From the IMG/VR virus record IMGVR_UViG_3300031992_000020: a stretch of DNA of 64,000 nt. One strand, 5' to 3'. Source of the stretch: a virus (lineage: Duplodnaviria > Heunggongvirae > Uroviricota > Caudoviricetes). This document shows positions 4,115 through 43,500 of this stretch, piece after piece. The position numbers and the translations under genes are program-made. Numbering within the stretch: the first letter of the stretch is position 1; each line of letters starts with the position of its first letter. The notes under the pieces are model-generated. The model ran no database searches, was not told where the DNA came from, and worked only from the letters and a program-made list of their open reading frames with translations.

Positions 4115-4948
4115 ATGGCTTTTACAAGATTGTCTCCAGAAGCTAATTTCGTAGAATTGGGCTTCGGACAGGTTGAGCCTAACCATCTCAGTGCGCAGAG
4201 AACTGGCGAAATTTTCGCACAGTTACCAGCTGCTGCAAATATTGATATTCTTGAGAATGGTCAGTTCGTAAAGTATGATTATGCCAATGGTGAAGTCAAC
4301 TTTGGCGATAATGCTAATGGCTATGCAACTGGTGAATGGATGCTCGTTTACAACGAAGTTAAAGTTTATCGTGACCATGAAACCGATCAGGATTTTGCGA
4401 TGATTCGTCGTGACTACAATGGTCGTGTTTATAGTCCTGTTGGTGTTGGCGCCGCTTCTAGTGCTTGGGGTTCTGCTCAGGGTATTAATGGTGTTGGCAT
4501 TAATGGTTATGCAAGTTCTAATGATTGGGATATGATGAAGGCTATTCAATCTCAGGTTGAACTTTATGCCGATGGACATGATAATGCAGCAGGTGTTGCA
4601 CCAGATTATGGTCGCAATCATTATCCAATCGGAAACAGCTACAAAGTTGAGAAACTTAATGTTCCTCAGATGGCTGAATATGCACAGCCAAACCGTCCAA
4701 ACGGAAATGGTAAGGCTGGTTTGATGGTTCCTCGTGTATTTAAGACTCACGAAGGTGACATCTTCACTACTAATACTATTGCTGTTAAGACAGGCACTAA
4801 CCTTACACTTGGCGAAATTCTTCGTCCAAATGCTCATGGTTATCTTACCAACGACACAGCTGTTACCGGCGACTTCCAGTGGCAGATTGTTAAGATTTAT
4901 AATCTTGGCGATATGCAGAGAGCCGTTAAGGTAATGAGAATTAAGTAA
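4115..4948 (+). CDS. Putative capsid decoration/cement protein
   Basis: RBS AGGAGG. The 277-aa ORF has GFGQVEPNHLSAQRTGEIFAQLP and ends in AVKVMRIK. It lies directly upstream of the major capsid gene and has no TAG. Confidence 0.65.
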   Translation: MAFTRLSPEANFVELGFGQVEPNHLSAQRTGEIFAQLPAAANIDILENGQFVKYDYANGEVNFGDNANGYATGEWMLVYNEVKVYRDHETDQDFAMIRRDYNGRVYSPVGVGAASSAWGSAQGINGVGINGYASSNDWDMMKAIQSQVELYADGHDNAAGVAPDYGRNHYPIGNSYKVEKLNVPQMAEYAQPNRPNGNGKAGLMVPRVFKTHEGDIFTTNTIAVKTGTNLTLGEILRPNAHGYLTNDTAVTGDFQWQIVKIYNLGDMQRAVKVMRIK

Positions 4949-22200: not shown

Positions 22201-25200
22201 ATGTTTATAAAGGTGATACAGAAGCTTTTGAGCATTGGCAAAATGAAGGCTATGTAACAGAATCCGAAGATGCTGATGGCACTATTCATATGAAAAAAAT
22301 AATTGTAGATGAAGTTGAAGTGCCAGAAGGAACTGAGGGTATTAAAACAGGTAATGAAACAGTCGATAGCGCAGCAGAAGGCGAAGATATTGATTGGCAA
22401 AGATATCTAGAAGATGTAGAATCATATGCTAATGCAGTAAATATGGCAAAAGATGATTTCAAAGATTATATTGAAGTCATCAAAGAAGCGGGTGGAGATT
22501 CAAGAAGTCTAAAAGAAATGTCTGATGAAGAACGTCGTTCTTTATTAGAATTGGCTAAAACCGCGGTTGATGTGTCAAATGCTTGGAATAGTTTAACAAG
22601 CAGTCAAAAAGATAATATTTCAATGATTAAAAATGGCGAAAAAGCAAATGTTAATTATGCATCTGGGCTCAAATCTGTCATGCAAAATGTTAAAACAATT
22701 TTTGGTAACAGTAAAGCTGTTACGGCAGATTTCGTAGAAGAAAACATTGATTTAATTGAAGATATGTCAAATGGTGTCGAAGGTGCAGCAGAAAAAGTTG
22801 AAGAGAAAGTGCTTCGCGCAGAAGCAGCCTTAGACGGTTGGGATTATGATAAAAAAATTCAAGTTGATTTTGATGTTGATGGCGATGGATTAAAAGATCA
22901 ACTCTCTACTATTGGTGAGGTTTTAAATAATTTTGGCGATCAACATGCAAATGAACCAGTTGGTTTTGTTGCTACTATTGATAATACACCTGCAATTGCT
23001 GGATTGAATGAATTACTATCTGCTGGTGAAATGACCGCAGAAGAAATGACAGCTGCATTAGCAACTATTGGCTGGGAGCCAGAAATTGAATATTAGCCAG
23101 TAACATTTGAACAAGCTTAGAAGCATAGAACTTCTGTATATACTGAAGATAATTTTGGTAATTATGTTCAAGTTAATGGTGAAGAACAATTAAATGGATC
23201 TACTCAATATTATATTCCAGTAATTAAGTCAGCGAAAAAAACTGGCACAGGTGCTTCTGGTACACGTCCAACCACTAACACCGGATCAAGTGGCGGCGGT
23301 GGAGGCGGAGGATCTAAAACCACCAAAGATAAAAAGAATTATAGTGATGAAATTGAACGTTATCATGAGATAACTGAACAATTAGGAATCATTAGTCGTC
23401 AATTAACTAAGATTGATAAACAAAAAGCTGCCGCATGGGGCAAAGGTAAACTTGATGCAATTAACAAAGAAATTGAAGCATTAAATAATGAAGCAGATGC
23501 GTATGCTCGATATGCTGATGAAGCTGCTGATTATATGGCATCAGATCGCGCAGACCTTACTGCAAATGGCGCATTGTTTAATGATGATGGATCTATTGCT
23601 AATTATGAACAATTAATGCAGCAATGGATTGATGAATACAACGATGCTGTTGAAGCATTTAATAATTCTGATCAAACCGACGCTGACCAAGATGCATTAG
23701 ATGATGCAGAAGATCTATACGAAAAACGCAAAAAGATGATCGAAAATTATGAAGCAGCATATCAAAAATATCAAGATCAAATTAATAACTATCTTGAAAC
23801 TTTGAATAAATTATCTGCGGCAAGACTTGAAAAAATTACTTATAAAGTAGAACTTCAAGTTGAGCTCGATGAGTCTGATCGTAAAATTATTGATTATTTC
23901 AACAAAAAGATTGAAAGCACTCTTGAAAAGCAAAGCGAGCGCATGAGCAATTATGTTAAGTCTCATAAATCCTATGAAGATGATGCTAGATCATATGCTG
24001 ACGCTATTGCTAAACTTGAAGAAGAACATCAAAAGTGGATTGATTCAAATGGTACTGAGGGTATTAATGATAGCGATTACGCAGCTACATTGTTAGATTA
24101 TCGTAATAAATTAGCCCAAGTATTAAGCGATATGTATGAAAATGAACAAAAAATTATGCAAATTTACTCTGATGCGGTTGACCTCGCAAATGAGAAAGTC
24201 CAAGAGCAGACTAATATTATCCAGCATTCTATTGATATGATGTCTAATTATGTAGAAATTTTAGGACTCATGGGTCGTAAAGTTGATTATGACGAACTTG
24301 AAAAATTCTATGATACACAGTATCAGTCTTATCTTGATATGATTGAAGTTAACAAAGCTTTAAGAGATCAATATAAGCAAGAGATGGAATACTATGAAGC
24401 AAAAATGGCTGCAGGTCAAGAACTATCCGAAGAAGAGCAAGAACAATATAAGAAAGCGACTGAGGCTTATATTGATGCTGAAAATACCTTAGTGTCTAAT
24501 ACCAAGGCCGCATTAACAGCAATTCAAGATGCACATAAAGCCCATATTCAAGCTATTATGGAAGATTTGAGTGAAGTAAATGCGGGCGTGCATTCTAATA
24601 TTCAGGATGTATCTGATGCATATGGCTATTGGAATGAACAACGTGCTAATTACTTAGCTACTGGTAAACAAATTTACGAAGTAAATAAGTTAAATCGTAA
24701 GATTGAAAGTTCTATGGCGGACTCTGCTACTAAGGCATCAAAAGAACGACTTGCCGCACTCGAAGAGGAAATTAAACTTAAATCTAAGAGTGGTAAATTG
24801 AGTGAATATCAAATCAAGCAATTTGAATTACAATATGAACTCGCTCTTGCATTGTAGGGAATTGAAGAAGCCCAAGACGCTAAATCTACTGTGCGCTTAG
24901 TGCGTGATGAAAACGGTGGTTATGGTTATCAATATACTGCTGACCAAGATAATTTAGATGAAGCTGAACAAAATTACGAAGATGTTCTTGAAAAAATTCG
25001 TGAATTAACTGAAACCACTGCTGACCAAATGGCGCAAGGATATATTAATGCACGTATTACAATGGAGCAAAAATTAGCAGAATTAGACGAGTCAGATTTT
25101 GCTACTCACGAAGAATATCTTGCAAAGCGTAATGAGATTATTGCTCATTACACTAGTCAAATGAATTATTATGCGCAACAATATAGCCTTGTTGCCGATG

Positions 25201-29900: not shown

Positions 29901-32900
29901 TTACCTTAGATGTGAAGTTGGCGGATATGTATTTTGGCAATCAATAGCTTTTGCGCGTAATGTCTATGCTTCTTCTATTATCAATAGTTGGGATGGTCAA
30001 TTATTAATTGATAAAGAAAAAAATGCTATTTTAACGCGCATGCTTTCCGCAGGTGTTAAAGACACTAAAAATCGTTTTAGTGGTGTCATCATGGGCGATT
30101 GGTCAGATTATGGTGATACATCTATTGATCCTATTGGTTTGTATGGCTTCAAAGAAGGAGTGCAGACCTTCGGATTTAAAAATGATGGAACTGGTTTTAT
30201 TGGTAAAGCTGGTTATGGTCAAATTACTTTTGATGGCGAAAATGCATTAATTTCTGACCGCACTAAAAATCATTATATTAATCTTAACCCTACTGTATTT
30301 GAGATTGATGCAAATAATAGACTGGTCCATGTCAAAGGTAGAGAAGGTTATTCACAATACTTTATTTATTCTAAAAGCACTAAATTAAATATTGTAAATA
30401 ATGATGATACCGAAGTAGGTAGTGGAGGTACTACTGCTTAGGATAATGGAGCAGATGAAAGCAAACGATATTTAGCTGGTTCTTCAAGAAATGCCGAATA
30501 TGGTTTCTTGAATATTAAATGGGCTAAAAAATTTATGAATGATACTGAAAATGATTATTTTGTAGTTGATCCAACTAATGGAGTTTATATTAGTGGTGGT
30601 TTTATTGCAAAATATGGTTACATTGGTGATTGTTTAGAACTGTCATCTGCTGGTTTGACTTACCAAAAAAATAATGGTATTATCTTCATAGGCTAGGAAA
30701 GAACTCGTGATGGCAAGCTTGTTATTACACCAAGTCATCCAACCAATGGATATGATGATGTATATTGGAGCAGCCAAAAAGGAGATAAATATAATTTCCG
30801 TAGCGGAGCAAAGCCAAGTTCTTCTTGGGGTAGATATATTATTTGGGTTGGTGATACAAATAGTTCGGGTAGACCTAAATATCTATATCCTAACTTCGGT
30901 CTTGAACATAATGGTATTGTTCATTTAAATAAAGCATATGTTCAAGGTGAAATTCATGCTAGTTCATTGTAGATTGGCATGGACGATGGCGAATATCATG
31001 ATGCACGCAGTAGATTTGCAAGAACTTATTATTCAGATTATAATCCTGCTAATTTAACTAATCAAAATGGTATTTGCGATAAGGTATATGGCGATATACT
31101 TCTTACCGGAGATTTGTGGTATGATACAAATGTAACAGTAAATATTAAAGATATTAGTTCATTTAGTATTACGCCAAAGAAAGATGCTAATGGTAATGAA
31201 GTTCAGTTGGATACTTCAAATCCGGCACAAGAAGATACAAACTCAAATTATCCATATGGATTTGATGTGTCTTAGTTATCTGAAAAAGAAAGCCGTGGTT
31301 ATGTCTGTTATGAATGGATTGGACACTAGGATGATGTAAAGAATTATCCTGAGTGTACATGGACTTATCAGAAGTTAAATGAAACTACTGGTAAGATGGA
31401 AACAGTTACAGAAACAATCCCAAATCATAAAGGTTGGAGACGTTTACCTGTTCTTTCTAAAGATACTTTAACTGAAATATCAATGCTTGCTTTATAGAGT
31501 ACCAAGGCAATTTAGACTTTATAGACTAAATTAACGAGTGCTTTAAAAACAGCGTATACGAATATTCGCACAGGAATGTCACCAATTAGTTTTTTTGAAG
31601 ATGGAAATTGTTATGTAAGTATTGCTCATAAGCAAAAAACAGTTACTAAAATTGGTACTGTGCCATCTGGTATTTCGATTTATCAAGTTGATAATAATGG
31701 TTATCCTAATGGTGCTTATTTCTTATTAAATGGTCAACGAATGGGATTTTATAAGAAATATACAGTAAATGGTACTATAGTAGATGTGCCAATGTTAACA
31801 TATTATCAAGGTAATATGGGCCTTGCTGGTAGTTTAGTATTCGGTATAGATATGAAAAAAGTCACTACGCAAGATAATGATAAAAATGATGTTAGTTTAT
31901 ATAAAAATTATCTTGATGGGCCGAATGCTGCAATTAGTTTGGGCGATGGAGCCATTAAGTTAGAAAGTAATGTCAATAAAATAAAGGGTATACCAACAGT
32001 TACTATTGGTGCAAAAGATAATGGAGCAAAAGCAAAGATTTATTTAGCAGGCTATGAAATTGTTGGTAATATAAATCAAAGTTTTTCTGCATCATTTAAA
32101 ATGGGATGCGACACTAGCCCTGACCAAACCGATACAAAAAAATATAATACTATATCTATAGAGCATGGTGAGAGTGTTGGAAAGAACGTTCCTTCAAGTC
32201 ATAGCATTACATGGTCAAGATATAAAATTACATCAGGCACGGAATATAAAATTACTGATCATTTGAATTAGTTTAAAATTATTAATGAAGGACGCGGTTT
32301 TTAGGTATTAGAGAATAATACTTAGTTACTTAACGACAATGGCCAAGCAGTCAATAACAATAAATTATACGATATAACAATTTTTAAACCAACAAAAGAT
32401 AGTGGTAAGTTAGATTTAAACAACAGCGCCTAGAATTTAATTATTGATTGGGATTTAATTTAGGGCGAAATGGGTAAATTTACTGATGTTGATGCCACTA
32501 ATATATTTTGTAAAAATCTTTATGTTTATGAAGATGAATATGCTAATAAAATTGCAACTGAAAAATGGGTTGCTGAAGAAATTAATGATGCTATTAATCT
32601 TTTGGTAGGAATGATTAATAGTTCTCAAACCACTGGCAATAAAGCATATGGTGCAGCTAAAAATCATACACATAATGAAAACGGTCGAGATGCTACTGCA
32701 AGTTGGGCCGGTTAAATTCATCGTGTGCGCGTTCCGGAAGGAGCGTGAAAAAATACCCACTGAATTGCTGGGAAGCCCTAAGAGCCCACGAGCCTATATG
32801 GAACGAAAGTAGAAACAAAGTAGTGGGATGGCACAAGGTTAAATCCTAAATGCTTTAATAATGGGTAATCAGCAGCCAGGCATAAGCAGGGTTCAACGAC

Positions 32901-34584
32901 TATCCGTAAGGAGTAGGGCTACGGCTCGAAGTGGTGGGCACCCAGAACGGGTGAAGATATAGTCTAGTCCCAAACGAAAGAATGGGTATAAACGAAATTA
33001 AATGCTACAGATGATGGTGGCGGCGTTATTAAAATTAGTCTTGGCGGTACTAAATTACCTAGTAATTTAGCTACTGCGGCAGCTGGCGCAGGTATTGCAA
33101 TTAGCAGTGCAACTAAATTTACAGGTAAATTTGGTATTTCATCTTCTTCAACCGCATTACAAAAATTTGTCGCAACTACCGGTAAAGATTTTACATGGGA
33201 AGTTACTGGTCTTGGCACTATTTTATTAGCTAAATCATTGTATCTAGTTGGCGAAATAACAGACGCAGATGAAACGCAATGGATCGCTGTGTCTTCGATG
33301 GTTTTACCTATTTTAACATCTTCATTACGAGGAGCAGTTTATGTAGAAGTTGCAAAAATAGGATTAAATTATACTGATCCAGCGAATACGAAACATACTT
33401 ATTCTCATAGCGCAGATACTATAAGCTCTCCTACAGATTATCTTGGCGGTTTAGGCTATACATTTGCTGAAATTGCTGATCATGCATAGGGTGCAACGAG
33501 TTTAACTATTAACGCCTCATAGTCAATGGATTATGGATCTATTAAAGCATTTGGTGATGAAATATTCTTAGCTGGTTATACTTCCGCTACTGATAAAATT
33601 AAATTTACCGCAGGCGGATCAAATACAGTAAGTACACTAACTTTACCAAAAACAGCAACAACTGCTGCATTAGCTGGAGATACTACTAACACACTACTCT
33701 ATACTTTAAAATTAGATTTAAACGATGCTGCTTCCGGAGGAACTTATAAAACTTCGCTAGGCGTTAAAGCTACATTATCTATGAGCGGTACTAGCGGATA
33801 TGGGTCAATAGAAGAAAGCGATACTTTAACACTTGGTTCAGAACAAAAAAGTGATAATCTTTATTATGCTTATGTAACTAATGCTAAAGGTACTCAAGTA
33901 TTAGTGAGACCTATGACATGGATCTATAATGCAGGATATAAAGCTGCATGTGATGCAATTAGTTTAACAGATAGTGGAGTTAGTATACCTGCAGTTAGCA
34001 GTATGGGAGTGCCTACAACTAATAGCACAATTAGTATTAGTGTAAGTCAAGAGAATGGTGTTACTAATAGTGACTAGGATAGTACTAAAGTGCGTGGTAC
34101 TGCTAAGCTTACTAAGGGATCTAGTTCTAAATCTTATAATTCTGGTAGTGGATCGACTGCTTGGTATGATCGTGGTTATGCAAAAGGTTGGACAGATGCA
34201 ATAGCTACTATTTCTGTTACACATAATTCAAGCAGAGAAAACAATACTATAACTGCCAAAGGTAAAGTAACTTATAAAGCTACTCATGATGCAACATCTT
34301 ATACTAGTAAAGAAGGTACGGAAAAGACATATACTGCTTCTGTATCTGACAGCCATAGCGCAACACTTAACGGTACATGGTCCGCAGGTTCAAGTATGAC
34401 ACTTTATAATAATTCTACATACGGTAAACTTGGAACTAAACATACTGGATCAGATTGGACCGCATATGAAGTTAGTGATACACATAAGCTTGGCGGTACT
34501 GGTGATACAAGAACTTGGTATTCTAATATTAATGATAACCATAGCGCATCATTAAGTGGTAGTTCATCTATCAGCTGGTCTTAA
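26965..34584 (+). CDS. Large tail-tip / host-specificity protein (~2,445 aa after splicing; exons 26965-32712 and 32995-34584; code 15)
   Basis: RBS AAGGAG. One frame runs throughout, interrupted by about 25 TAGs and by the intron. The middle has GVIMGDW...GLYGFKEGVQTFGFKNDGTGFIGK, and the C-terminal part is Ser/Thr/Gly-rich. Ends in TAA. Confidence 0.75.
32713..32994 (+). ncRNA. Group I self-splicing intron (IA2-like), 282 nt, no homing endonuclease
   Basis: P element GAATTGCTGGGAA (32762), Q AATCAGCAG (32867), R GTTCAACGACTA (32891), S AAGATATAGTCT (32954). Pairings: P3 CCCAC/GTGGG, P4 TGCTG/CAGCA, P7 GACTA(T)/(A)TAGTC, P7.1, P7.2, P8 CACCC/GGGTG, P9 with a GAAA loop, P9.0 GT/AC, and terminal G at 32994. 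Removal rejoins the frame as ASWAG|KLNATDD. Confidence 0.9.
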
Positions 34585-40511: not shown

Positions 40512-43500
40512 ATGGGTTTTTATGGTAATATAAGTGGCTCAACTAAATCAGCCTTTACTTTTGATAGAGTATATGCAAATAGAACATTGATGGATCAGAG
40601 CCTTGATACCGGTGTTGATACAGTATTCTTAGGGCGCTATGTTCTCGTTGAATATGATGACGCTCCGGTATCAATCTGGATCGTTACAAGAGACAATGTG
40701 TCTATTGCATACACAGATTATGAATTAACCACACGTTTGGTGCCGATGGCTAATATTGTATACCGTGATGAAAATAGTGGCCAGACTACACATAGTACAG
40801 TTGATTTTTATGAATATGATATTGCACAGCGCAAATTGGTCAAAGTGCAAGGCAATAGTCCATATGGCGTAAACTATAATATTGACGTTCAGAAGTATGG
40901 TCGTGGTTATGATGGCACTGTTTGGCGCAAGATTTATGATACTACGCTAAACAAATATAGATATGTATTAATGGCAGAGTTAAATGCGGCAGTGCCTACA
41001 TTCCATTACACTGTTGATAATCCATTGGAGATATCAACTGCACCAAGTATTGACTCTTCTGATAGCACGAACTTAAACTATTATATCCATCAACGTGGAT
41101 ATATTATGGACAGATTTAAGACAGATTCTAATGGTGATGTTAGAATTGCTCAACCATCAGAAGCTTGGACTTATAATAGTGATGGCACTGAAAAAACCCA
41201 TACTTACAATATCGGGGAAGAAACAGTTGCTATTAAATTTAATAAAGCTGGTTTTTCACCTGCTAATCACCAAGTTGCTCTTGAAAGCAATAGTAATGAT
41301 GTGATTATGGGCACTAATATTATTGCATGGACACCAAGTAGTTCTGGTAGACATTATAATGTCAGCTTAGCTAACCCACAAGGTGTTGTAGCAAATGATA
41401 TTAGAAATTGGTCTATTGATTTGCCTGTTCTTGGTAATGTTGTACATAAGATGTATGATATTATTTATGGTTATAATGGCACGTCAAGAACGATTACTAA
41501 TTGGCAGAAAACTAATTTAGCTCAGAATGATAAAATGTATCGCATGGATACAATGGTTGGTGCCATCAATAGAGTGCGTGATGCTCTTGGATATAATGTA
41601 ATTACGCAATCATCTGCGCCAACTCAAATTAAAACTGCTGATGATACTAACTTATATTTAATTGGGCCAGATGTACAAACCAATGGCGGCATTGATAGTT
41701 ATTACTATTATGCTAAACAACCTGTATATGTTTCTGATACAATGGGTGATTATTACTATGATGCTGGAACATATCGTGTAGCTAATAAATTAACTGTCCC
41801 AGCCGATTAGTTATTAAAACTAGATCATTATGAATACAAACCTATTCGTTTAACGAATTTAGGAGTAACCATGTATGGTTTAGTTGTTTCTCTTAATCGT
41901 TTAATGGGTGTTGGTGTAACTCCTGGAACACTTCGTGATACAGAAACTATCCCAGGTATGATGGGTAGAATTTCTGATATTTTTGAGCGCATTGACACTG
42001 CGTTATTACCTAATAGAATTATTGCGACTAATAGTAGAGGTATCATTGGTACTATTGGTTCATTAACTGATGAAGTTGGTTTGTTCCCATACGTGCCGGC
42101 AGGCGTTACTGCTGATAGCGCAAATGACAATGGCGATGATTATGTGATGAGCGGTAAAGGTAATTGGAGATTACCTGCTAATTACTTATTAACTGGCTTA
42201 ACTCCAAATGCCACTTACAACGATAAGATTCGTCATGCAGTTGCAGTAACTGATACTTTAAATCAAGCGATTGGTAAGATAGCAAGAGAGTTTGCTGATG
42301 TATATGGAGACCGTGCCGCATCCACTCTTTCTGCTCTTATAAAGAACGCTAATACTCCATAGACTGAGAACTATGAAACTGTTACAGGTATTGATACTTT
42401 TGATAAAGTTGCTACTATCTTTAACAATCGCACAGAATCTGTTGATGAGCGCATTAAAGATCTTCGGATGTTTAGATATTTCGCTATTGCAAATGGTGAA
42501 GCTGATGCGGCAACTGCAAAAGCAAATATTACCGCAGCTATTGGTATTGCAGATTCTGACAATAATGCAGACACTTTCTATTTTAAAACTGGTAATAAAT
42601 GGATTCGTTTGGCCATTGATACAACAACTGATAAGTTAACTATCGCGCACGTGCTTTCCGCAGATACTGCGGGAGAAATTGCATCAAGTGCTACCGGGTG
42701 GGGCAGTGGAACAAATGCTGACAATGCAATTGTAATTCCTAAATTTACAATTGATGAAGCTGGTCATGTTGTTGGTCATGGATCTAATACTTATTATTTG
42801 CCGCATAGCTTTAAGTATGTTTCCGTGGCGGCTCAGTCCTTAGCTGTTGATAACAGTACAGGTAATATAGAAACAATTAAGGCCGATTCCTCAGCCGATA
42901 CTCTTACCTTTGCAACAGCTAACAAATGGTTGACAATTGCCGCATCTGACGTAAGCAATGCTGATAAAGTTACATTAGGGCATATAACAGCCTGGGCTGC
43001 GCATCAGGAAATTGCCCCAACGGCACAAGCTGGCTGGACAAGAGTAAGTGAGAACAAGATTACTCTTCCTACTTTTGATTTTGATGAAGCAGGCCATTTA
43101 GTTGGTCATAATACACAAGATTTCTATTTGCCGCACTCATTTAAAGCATTTAGCGTATTAGCTCAGAATACAGGATCTACGGCAAGCACTGGTAATACAA
43201 ATACAGTTACTGCTGATAACTCTTCTGATACTTTACGTTTTAGCACCGATAATAAATGGGTTACTATACGTGCAATAGAATCTGGTGAAGATGACACTAT
43301 TTATTTCGGCCATGCTTATGATGGCACAGCTGGTAATCAATCTTTTGGTTTACAATATAGTAAGAAAGTTGCTCCAACAGAAACAGAACTTACGAATCAC
43401 GATTATGTAAATCTTGATTCTACTAATCAATTTGAGATTCCTTATTTCACAGTTGATCAGACTGGTCATATTATTAGTGCATCTACGCAGCATGTAATTA

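Follow-up and report, generated by a model that had tools for sequence, protein, structure and literature searches.

In a 64,000-nt stretch of DNA (hereafter the window) of a rumen phage of the Caudoviricetes, IMG/VR virus record IMGVR_UViG_3300031992_000020, a gene of the tail module is interrupted by a group I intron of 321 nt that occupies positions 32674-32994 and is spliced out in sheep-gut RNA. The 5' splice site lies at 32673|32674 (CACAT|AATGAA, the bar marking the splice site), because a joint in RNA, the U.G pair of the P1 helix and an intron-less allele of the gene agree on it. We are highly confident of the reading as a whole, that is, of a spliced intron at 32674-32994 that has no open reading frame (ORF) of its own and is IA2-like in architecture, located within a 2432-codon gene of a phage that reads TAG as glutamine.

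Twenty-four public sequencing runs contain the intron stretch, sheep-gut metatranscriptomes among them, and the contigs of three RNA runs (X3, X7, X9) and one DNA run (X4) were compared over 32200-33500. The sole joint reported connects 32673 directly with 32995, so that 321 nt with the ends AA..CG are missing, and occurs in contigs of two metatranscriptome runs, X7, where a 1368-nt contig holds it with flanks of 191 nt and 506 nt, and X3, where a 58-nt contig holds it with flanks of 28 and 30 nt. The ligated junction CACAU|AAAUUA (CACAT|AAATTA) is present in these RNA contigs, whereas the junction GCCGGT|AAATTA, proposed in a preliminary description made from the sequence of the window, does not occur in them. 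RNA run X9 has no contig over 32464-32771 and is hence uninformative on the 5' splice site. In the DNA run X4, no joint was found and the contigs continue across both splice sites.

Joined contigs of this kind could also derive from a co-occurring strain with a precise loss at the DNA level, with the intron itself being an inactive relic. Intron-less alleles of the gene do exist (locus L004), RNA libraries can include DNA and X7 has no unspliced contig of the identical strain among its contigs. Such an origin is nevertheless very unlikely, as the joint coincides exactly with the sites that the structure predicts (U.G and omega G), and X3 contains unspliced contigs as well, with joined and unspliced forms both 100% identical to the window. 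Furthermore, the X4 DNA has no joined contig, yet shares three single-nucleotide polymorphisms in exon 2 with the joined contig of X7; the only intron-less allele found, L004, is 83% identical to the window upstream and 66% downstream of the site and hence not the window strain; and the intron core is intact and visibly under structural constraint.

The intron is equally recognized by a covariance model, in agreement with the group I assignment of the preliminary description. Scanned with laxer filters, the 1.1-kb stretch 32300-33400 gave a match to RF00028 (Intron_gpI) of 63.9 bits (E 1e-15), 13.9 bits above the gathering score of 50; an Rfam search of the whole 149-kb virus record returned the same match and no second one, and the homologous locus L002 scores 68.3 bits with RF00028. 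A scan of the 64-kb window at the gathering threshold with fast filters gave zero matches and missed the intron, a result superseded by the scan of the shorter stretch; the pre-filters based on hidden Markov models were probably defeated by the long insertions in P1 and P5. A standard whole-contig Rfam scan can overlook a genuine intron with long peripheral insertions, and other windows scanned in fast mode alone may conceal comparable introns. Composition and folding also set the intron apart, with a GC content of about 0.45-0.46 compared with about 0.30 in the surroundings and an intron strand more stable than its shuffles (fold z = -3.1).

Four further copies of the intron sit at the same site of the homologous gene, full length in L002 and L003 and partial in L005 and L006. 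In five of five copies, the last exon bases CACAU pair with a guide GUGUG within the intron, U32673 facing G32723 as the wobble pair, and unconstrained minimum-free-energy (MFE) folds of all five yield the P1 hairpin, with an identical base stem and an extension that varies in length and sequence. The allele L004, on the other hand, has no intron and presents one continuous ORF, CATTCACAT|GGTTTAAC, in which ...CAT TCA CAT|GGT TTA ACT TCA ACA GAT... aligns with ...CAT ACA CAT|AAA TTA AAT GCT ACA GAT... of the window. The preliminary description had proposed a search for intron-less alleles in relatives, and the one found is joined exactly at CAT|. At the 3' end, the terminal G32994 (omega G) is kept in all three full copies and the RNA joint resumes at 32995, which bears out the 3' end given earlier.

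An intron of 282 nt (32713-32994), with its 5' site after GGT and a protein that retains NENGRDATASWAG, had been assumed instead. Its excision would also preserve the frame, the sequence TTGGGCCGGT shows no difference among four copies even at synonymous positions, and a likeness of GGT|TAA to the T4 td junction was put forward in its favour in the preliminary description. Against these points stand the RNA joint at 32673, with none reported at 32712; the allele L004, which lacks the 13 residues NENGRDATASWAG that a junction at 32712 would keep; and a search by hand for a guide to GCCGGU that would provide a U.G pair, which found none. TTGGGCCGGT forms the 3' side of the stem that extends P1 and is not a td-like exon end, which accounts for its conservation at synonymous positions; GGT|TAA itself is an in-frame stop in the P1 extension. 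The shorter version is therefore highly improbable: the real 5' site lies 39 nt upstream of it, one long ORF is restored by excision, as claimed, and joined in RNA, but 321 and not 282 nt are removed, and the doubt voiced earlier about a 5' site with no U.G pair in P1 was justified, P1 being canonical (CACAU/GUGUG) at 32673. Alternative 5' sites after U32703, U32704 or U32713 were rejected on frame, on a missing G at the matching 3' position, or on only 3-4 weak pairs. Equally, the P1 placed by Rfam (32595-32617 in the window, an exon-internal hairpin in L002) was rejected as chance pairing, because P1 must hold the splice site and the downstream guide.

The in-frame TAA (32713-15) and TGA (32746-48) that the preliminary description had located in the intron are confirmed by the sequence. 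In all five copies, the exon-1 frame, continued into the intron, meets a TAA within the P1 extension, which in L005 is preceded by an in-frame TAG. The peptide that would be read through the P1 extension (32674-32715; L002, L003, L005 and L006 compared) displays a loose N-x-x-G-R/V ... W-A/R-G pattern with indels in multiples of three. This pattern is most simply due to the RNA stems (CGGUC and GGCCGG), while selection on the C-terminus of a truncated protein is a conceivable alternative.

Helices were placed with the Rfam alignment as a guide, and every pair was checked on an alignment of the intron copies (Table 1). The core elements listed in the preliminary description, P3, P4, P7, P7.1, P7.2, P8, P9.0, P9 and the terminal G32994, are each found in the intron, the helices with complementary strands, and P3, P4, P5, P6, P7 and P8, including the P3/P7 pseudoknot, consist of standard pairs in the three full copies. 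Changes on both sides of a helix are seen in P2, where two pairs differ in L005 and L006 (CG to UA, CG to AU), and in the outer stem of P5b, where L002 has two compensatory changes (GC to AU, AU to GC), whereas P3 carries a single one-sided change, U.G to U-A, in L003. P7.1 and P7.2 between P7 and the 3' strand of P3 are a mark of subgroup IA. Judged from architecture only, with P7.1 and P7.2 in the right order and complementary, the intron appears IA2-like. In the P5 region, CCUAAG (32777-82) and UAUGG (32797-801), which match both halves of the classic GAAA-receptor consensus, lie 15 nt apart, and L9 is a GAAA loop. Their reading as an 11-nt GAAA-tetraloop receptor was rejected, since the two would face each other in a single helix only if the consensus P5 were disrupted, and we make no claim of a tertiary contact.

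Table 1. Positions in the window of the intron, its helices, its exons and the adjacent tape measure gene.
Feature	Position	Strand	Details
Tape measure gene, 4518 codons	13299..26855	+	PF10145 PhageMin_Tail 96 bits; C-terminal Hint domain
Exon 1, 1903 codons	26965..32673	+	22 in-frame TAG, no TAA/TGA; TAG=Q translation, codon counts; end from RNA joint
Group I intron, 321 nt, ORF-less, IA2-like architecture	32674..32994	+	RF00028 63.9 bits; RNA contigs skipping exactly 32674-32994; helices below
P1 hairpin, 59 nt	32669..32727	+	Base stem CACAU 32669-73/GUGUG 32723-27; extension stems 32675-79/32717-21 and 32682-86/32706-10; MFE folds
In-frame TAA within P1 extension	32713..32715	+	Unspliced mRNA would stop here after 13 intron-encoded codons
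P2	32728..32747	+	8-bp hairpin directly after P1; GNRA loop (GGAA here; GGGA in L002, L003)
P3, 5' strand	32756..32762	+	Pairs with 32932-32938
P4-P5 domain	32766..32874	+	Rfam alignment
P4	32766-71/32869-74	+	
P5	32776-78/32863-65	+	
P5a	32785-89/32823-27	+	
P5b (32831-53)	32831-33/32851-53 and 32836-38/32845-47	+	
P6 hairpin	32875..32892	+	Loop AUAA here, GCAA in L003, shorter in L002
P7	32898-902/32960-64 (domain 32898..32964)	+	Encloses P7.1, P7.2, P3 3' strand and P8
P7.1	32903-12	+	GNRA loop in all three full copies
P7.2	32916-27	+	UNCG loop in all three full copies (UACG or UUCG)
P3, 3' strand	32932-38	+	
P8	32939-53	+	One-sided change(s) among copies
P9.0	32967-68/32992-93	+	
P9, GAAA loop	32969-86	+	
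Terminal G (omega G)	32994	+	Alignment of copies; 3' end of RNA joint
Exon 2, 529 codons + TAA	32995..34584	+	3 in-frame TAG; no start codon near 5' end; 1368-nt RNA contig joins to exon 1

Several points weigh against the interpretation as a spliced intron of 321 nt. The position of the joint is ambiguous by 2 nt, with AA on both sides, and nothing but the rule that U precedes the 5' site and G precedes the 3' site settles it. All runs are assembled contigs and not raw reads, in which ratios of spliced to unspliced RNA are unreadable, the flanks of the X3 joint contig (28 and 30 nt) fall under the 31-nt bridging rule, and both RNA runs stem from the same year and habitat and may represent one campaign. 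Strictly speaking, the RNA samples might contain the same strain with a DNA variant that lacks precisely the intron, the DNA control consisting of one run from another sample, and self-splicing without the help of proteins is putative. With regard to structure, P10 is weak, with 1-2 adjacent pairs at most as read by eye, and there are three full-length copies only, with most core pairs invariant and covariation thin outside P2 and P5b.

The covariance match, the complementarity and the ligated RNA are the observed part of a splicing pathway, the steps of which are presumed to be those standard for group I introns. P1 would arise by pairing of the guide GUGUG (32723-27) with the five terminal bases of exon 1, the pair U32673.G32723 marking the point of cleavage, and a free guanosine held in P7 would attack after U32673. 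Subsequently, G32994, placed by P9.0, would occupy the G site and the 5' exon would attack after G32994, joining codon 1903 (His) to Lys-Leu-Asn of exon 2. On unspliced RNA, translation would read 13 codons of the P1 extension before meeting the TAA at 32713, which would be beyond the reach of the amber suppressor of the phage.

The host gene of the intron is open only under a reassigned stop codon. With TAG read as glutamine, the exon-1 frame extends from 26965 to the TAA at 32713, the spliced ORF counts 1903 + 529 = 2432 codons, of which 25 are TAG and none is TAA or TGA, and TAG=Q is the only reading that gives long ORFs throughout the window. Furthermore, the record encodes a tRNA with the anticodon CUA at C1:3515-3606 (92 nt, long variable arm; labelled 'Pyl' by ARAGORN). 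By the criteria of code 15, in-frame TAGs and a CUA tRNA, the gene is TAG-recoded, as claimed in the preliminary description, with the glutamine identity of TAG assumed. In annotation, the largest gene of the tail module after the tape measure gene is one spliced ORF of 2432 codons and not two genes, with the correct junction peptide ...AAKNHTH-KLNATDD.... That exon 2 is translated as a separate gene from an internal start, with the intervening RNA as a structured spacer, is hardly credible: in L002 and L003, gene callers placed the start at a Met roughly 20 codons downstream of the exon-2 border (MPSGLAEAAAGAG), but the window has Leu and not Met there and the first ATG/GTG/TTG ORF in the exon-2 frame starts at 33238, 81 codons in. 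Moreover, homology to the intron-less allele L004 begins at the first exon-2 codon (xLNxTD) and the RNA contigs join the exons in frame.

The intron is far better conserved than the gene it resides in. Identity to the window amounts to 90.7% in L002 and 93.8% in L003 over the intron as compared with 59-75% over the flanking 300 nt of exon, and upstream of the site the intron-less L004 (83%) is closer to the window than the intron-bearing L003 (75%) and L002 (72%). A fixed site, a patchy distribution and a conservation above that of the host gene are what is usually seen with group I introns that are mobile or were so until recently; the conservation also owes something to purifying selection on the ribozyme. 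As had been claimed before, no endonuclease gene was found in the 321-nt intron, whose length does not suffice to encode one and where small ORFs overlap on both strands without a significant Pfam match; the lone match among them is at chance level (E 0.011) and below the cut-off. Spread of an intron without its own endonuclease would require a trans-acting nuclease or plain recombination, and we infer such spread because the intron is patchily present at one fixed site and conserved far above the exons. Outside the window, the same genome has two free-standing GIY-YIG ORFs (C1:3632-3889, 40984-41232; 252 and 230 codons) and one free-standing HNH ORF (C1:11374-11502, 129 codons), while no LAGLIDADG gene was found in the genome. 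The GIY-YIG and HNH ORFs are candidate trans-acting nucleases, which nothing links to the intron.

With respect to the search for relatives, exon 2 found none in viral contigs and a 27-nt core pattern had no match in viral contigs, while a 23-nt pattern retrieved one partial copy, L006, from metagenome contigs. A second, diverged intron copy, corresponding to about 32708-32965, is seen in contigs of X7 and X4 with 12 differences and two indels, and beyond 32965 continues into unrelated sequence from GGCTTTATACGAAAG. Having the same core with a different P9 and 3' context, it possibly represents another insertion site or another phage.

Short introns of this kind have been described from phage tail genes. 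In mycobacteriophages BAKA and Optimus, a minor tail gene is interrupted by a group I intron of 265 bp that lacks an ORF and is spliced in vivo, and a capsid-gene intron of lactococcal phage Tuc2009 is listed in the same work (Pope et al. 2013, PMC3706429). The intron of the rumen phage resembles the BAKA and Optimus intron in that it is short and endonuclease-free, interrupts a tail gene of a large siphovirus, has U at the end of exon 1 and G at the end of the intron, is spliced at the RNA level and has intron-less alleles in related phages; unlike here, those phages have Actinobacteria hosts and the standard code, and splicing was observed by reverse-transcription PCR in culture and not in metatranscriptome contigs.

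Closer in architecture are the IA2 introns of T4 td, nrdB and nrdD and of Twort orf142, which likewise have P7.1 and P7.2 between P7 and the 3' strand of P3 and an early in-frame stop. The conserved tracts GTTCAACGACTA and AAGATATAGTC we take to be common to this intron and the IA2 phage introns, according to our reading of the Rfam alignment. The lineage described here differs from the IA2 phage introns by a 49-nt P1 extension and the P5a/P5b extension. BLAST against cultured phages gave core-only matches (up to 175 nt, 73-92% identity) to introns of Staphylococcus, Bacillus, Clostridium, Enterocloster, Klebsiella and Vibrio phages. The best-covered match, 73% over 163 nt, lies between two 'portal protein' coding-sequence (CDS) fragments of Bacillus phage vB_BceH_LY2 (ON366411.1, L009 112548-114299). 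This is another insertion into a structural gene, but the phage belongs to the Herelleviridae, the gene is a different one and intron ORFs are annotated as 'transposase', which are probably its endonuclease. In Alicyclobacillus phage KKP_3916 (OQ846916.1 ~24726-25119, L007), a core match falls into an unannotated gap between two small hypothetical CDS. The core matches in KKP_3916 and vB_BceH_LY2 are unannotated group I introns in structural modules. With the minor tail gene of BAKA and Optimus (PMC3706429) and the portal gene of vB_BceH_LY2, the preliminary description overstated the rarity of introns in structural genes.

Group I introns have also been described in genes of recoded gut phages, namely in the crAss-like Delta and Zeta groups, where structural genes such as that of the major capsid protein are included (Yutin et al. 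2021, PMC7886860), and in an Agate phage (Borges et al., bioRxiv 10.1101/2021.08.26.457843). These cases share with ours an intron of the self-splicing type in a gene of a stop-reassigning phage, but they were found via endonuclease domains, whereas this intron has none and the phage, with a genome of about 150 kb (149-kb record) from the rumen, is not crAss-like. Short ORF-less group I introns validated by metatranscriptomes have been reported from terL, nrdD and polymerase genes of Jug jumbo phages, 360-400 kb phages of Bacteroides (PMC12880540). Jug phages are similar in that short ORF-less introns of an uncultivated gut phage have RNA support across the junction, by mapped reads there and by contigs here, and dissimilar in that the rumen phage has a single intron (one RF00028 match in 149 kb) located in a tail-module gene. 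As ORF-less tail-gene introns, introns in recoded phages and metatranscriptome-validated phage introns have all been published, this intron is an ordinary further example, and the knowledge of group I introns or recoded phages is unchanged by the case. What it does illustrate is that splice sites of phages not in culture can be located to the exact base with metatranscriptome assemblies from public archives.

The intron lies where a conserved part, perhaps the shaft, of a putatively tail fibre-like protein gives way to a hypervariable distal module. Consistent with such a border, L004 is 83% identical to the window upstream of the site as compared with 66% and then unalignable sequence downstream, and exon-2 architectures differ among relatives. 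It is a doubtful, speculative suggestion that at this place the intron does more than parasitise its gene, by isoform control or module exchange. In a putative isoform control, how efficiently the intron is spliced could determine how much of a truncated form of 1916 residues, which ends at the TAA in P1, is made relative to the 2432-residue form that carries the distal domain. In a putative module exchange, the intron, at 91-94% identity better conserved than the exons around it (59-75%), could serve co-infecting phages as a portable homology patch for swapping receptor-binding modules.

The intron-bearing gene begins 110 nt past the tape measure gene, with the portal gene (1129-2766) and a virion protein gene upstream and a gene with a PHROG 'tail protein' match downstream, and the same gene order is found in L002. 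It is from this position in the tail module that a tail structural gene, as named in the preliminary description, can reasonably be inferred; the position directly after the tape measure gene stands, but no family, structure or model match accompanies it. The gene product had no Pfam, PHROG or NCBIfam match, even at E 10, and no match among PDB sequences; the families of its distant homologues gave no clue to function and cluster names were lacking; and an AlphaFold2 model of exon 2 from a 4-row alignment was unusable, with a mean predicted local distance difference test score (pLDDT) of 31.5. The portal protein is closest to an unannotated human-gut phage fragment (50%), followed by Phage Phass-1 of the 'Caudoviricetes code 15 clade' (36% identity) and then by large siphoviruses of Enterococcus, Brevibacillus, Bacillus and Lactococcus; the Phass-1 proteins are all hypothetical and their annotation is of no help for the intron-bearing gene. 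Outside the window, 19 tRNA genes identified by ARAGORN are clustered at one end of the record (C1:467-11155).

The tape measure protein contains a Hint/PT-HINT domain at residues ~4228-4378 (PF07591 37.6 bits, PF01079 29.6 bits), and an Intein_splicing-like domain likewise closes P0012, a protein of 2209 aa that is distantly homologous to the intron-bearing gene. In this group of phages, giant tail proteins thus repeatedly terminate in self-cleaving Hint modules.

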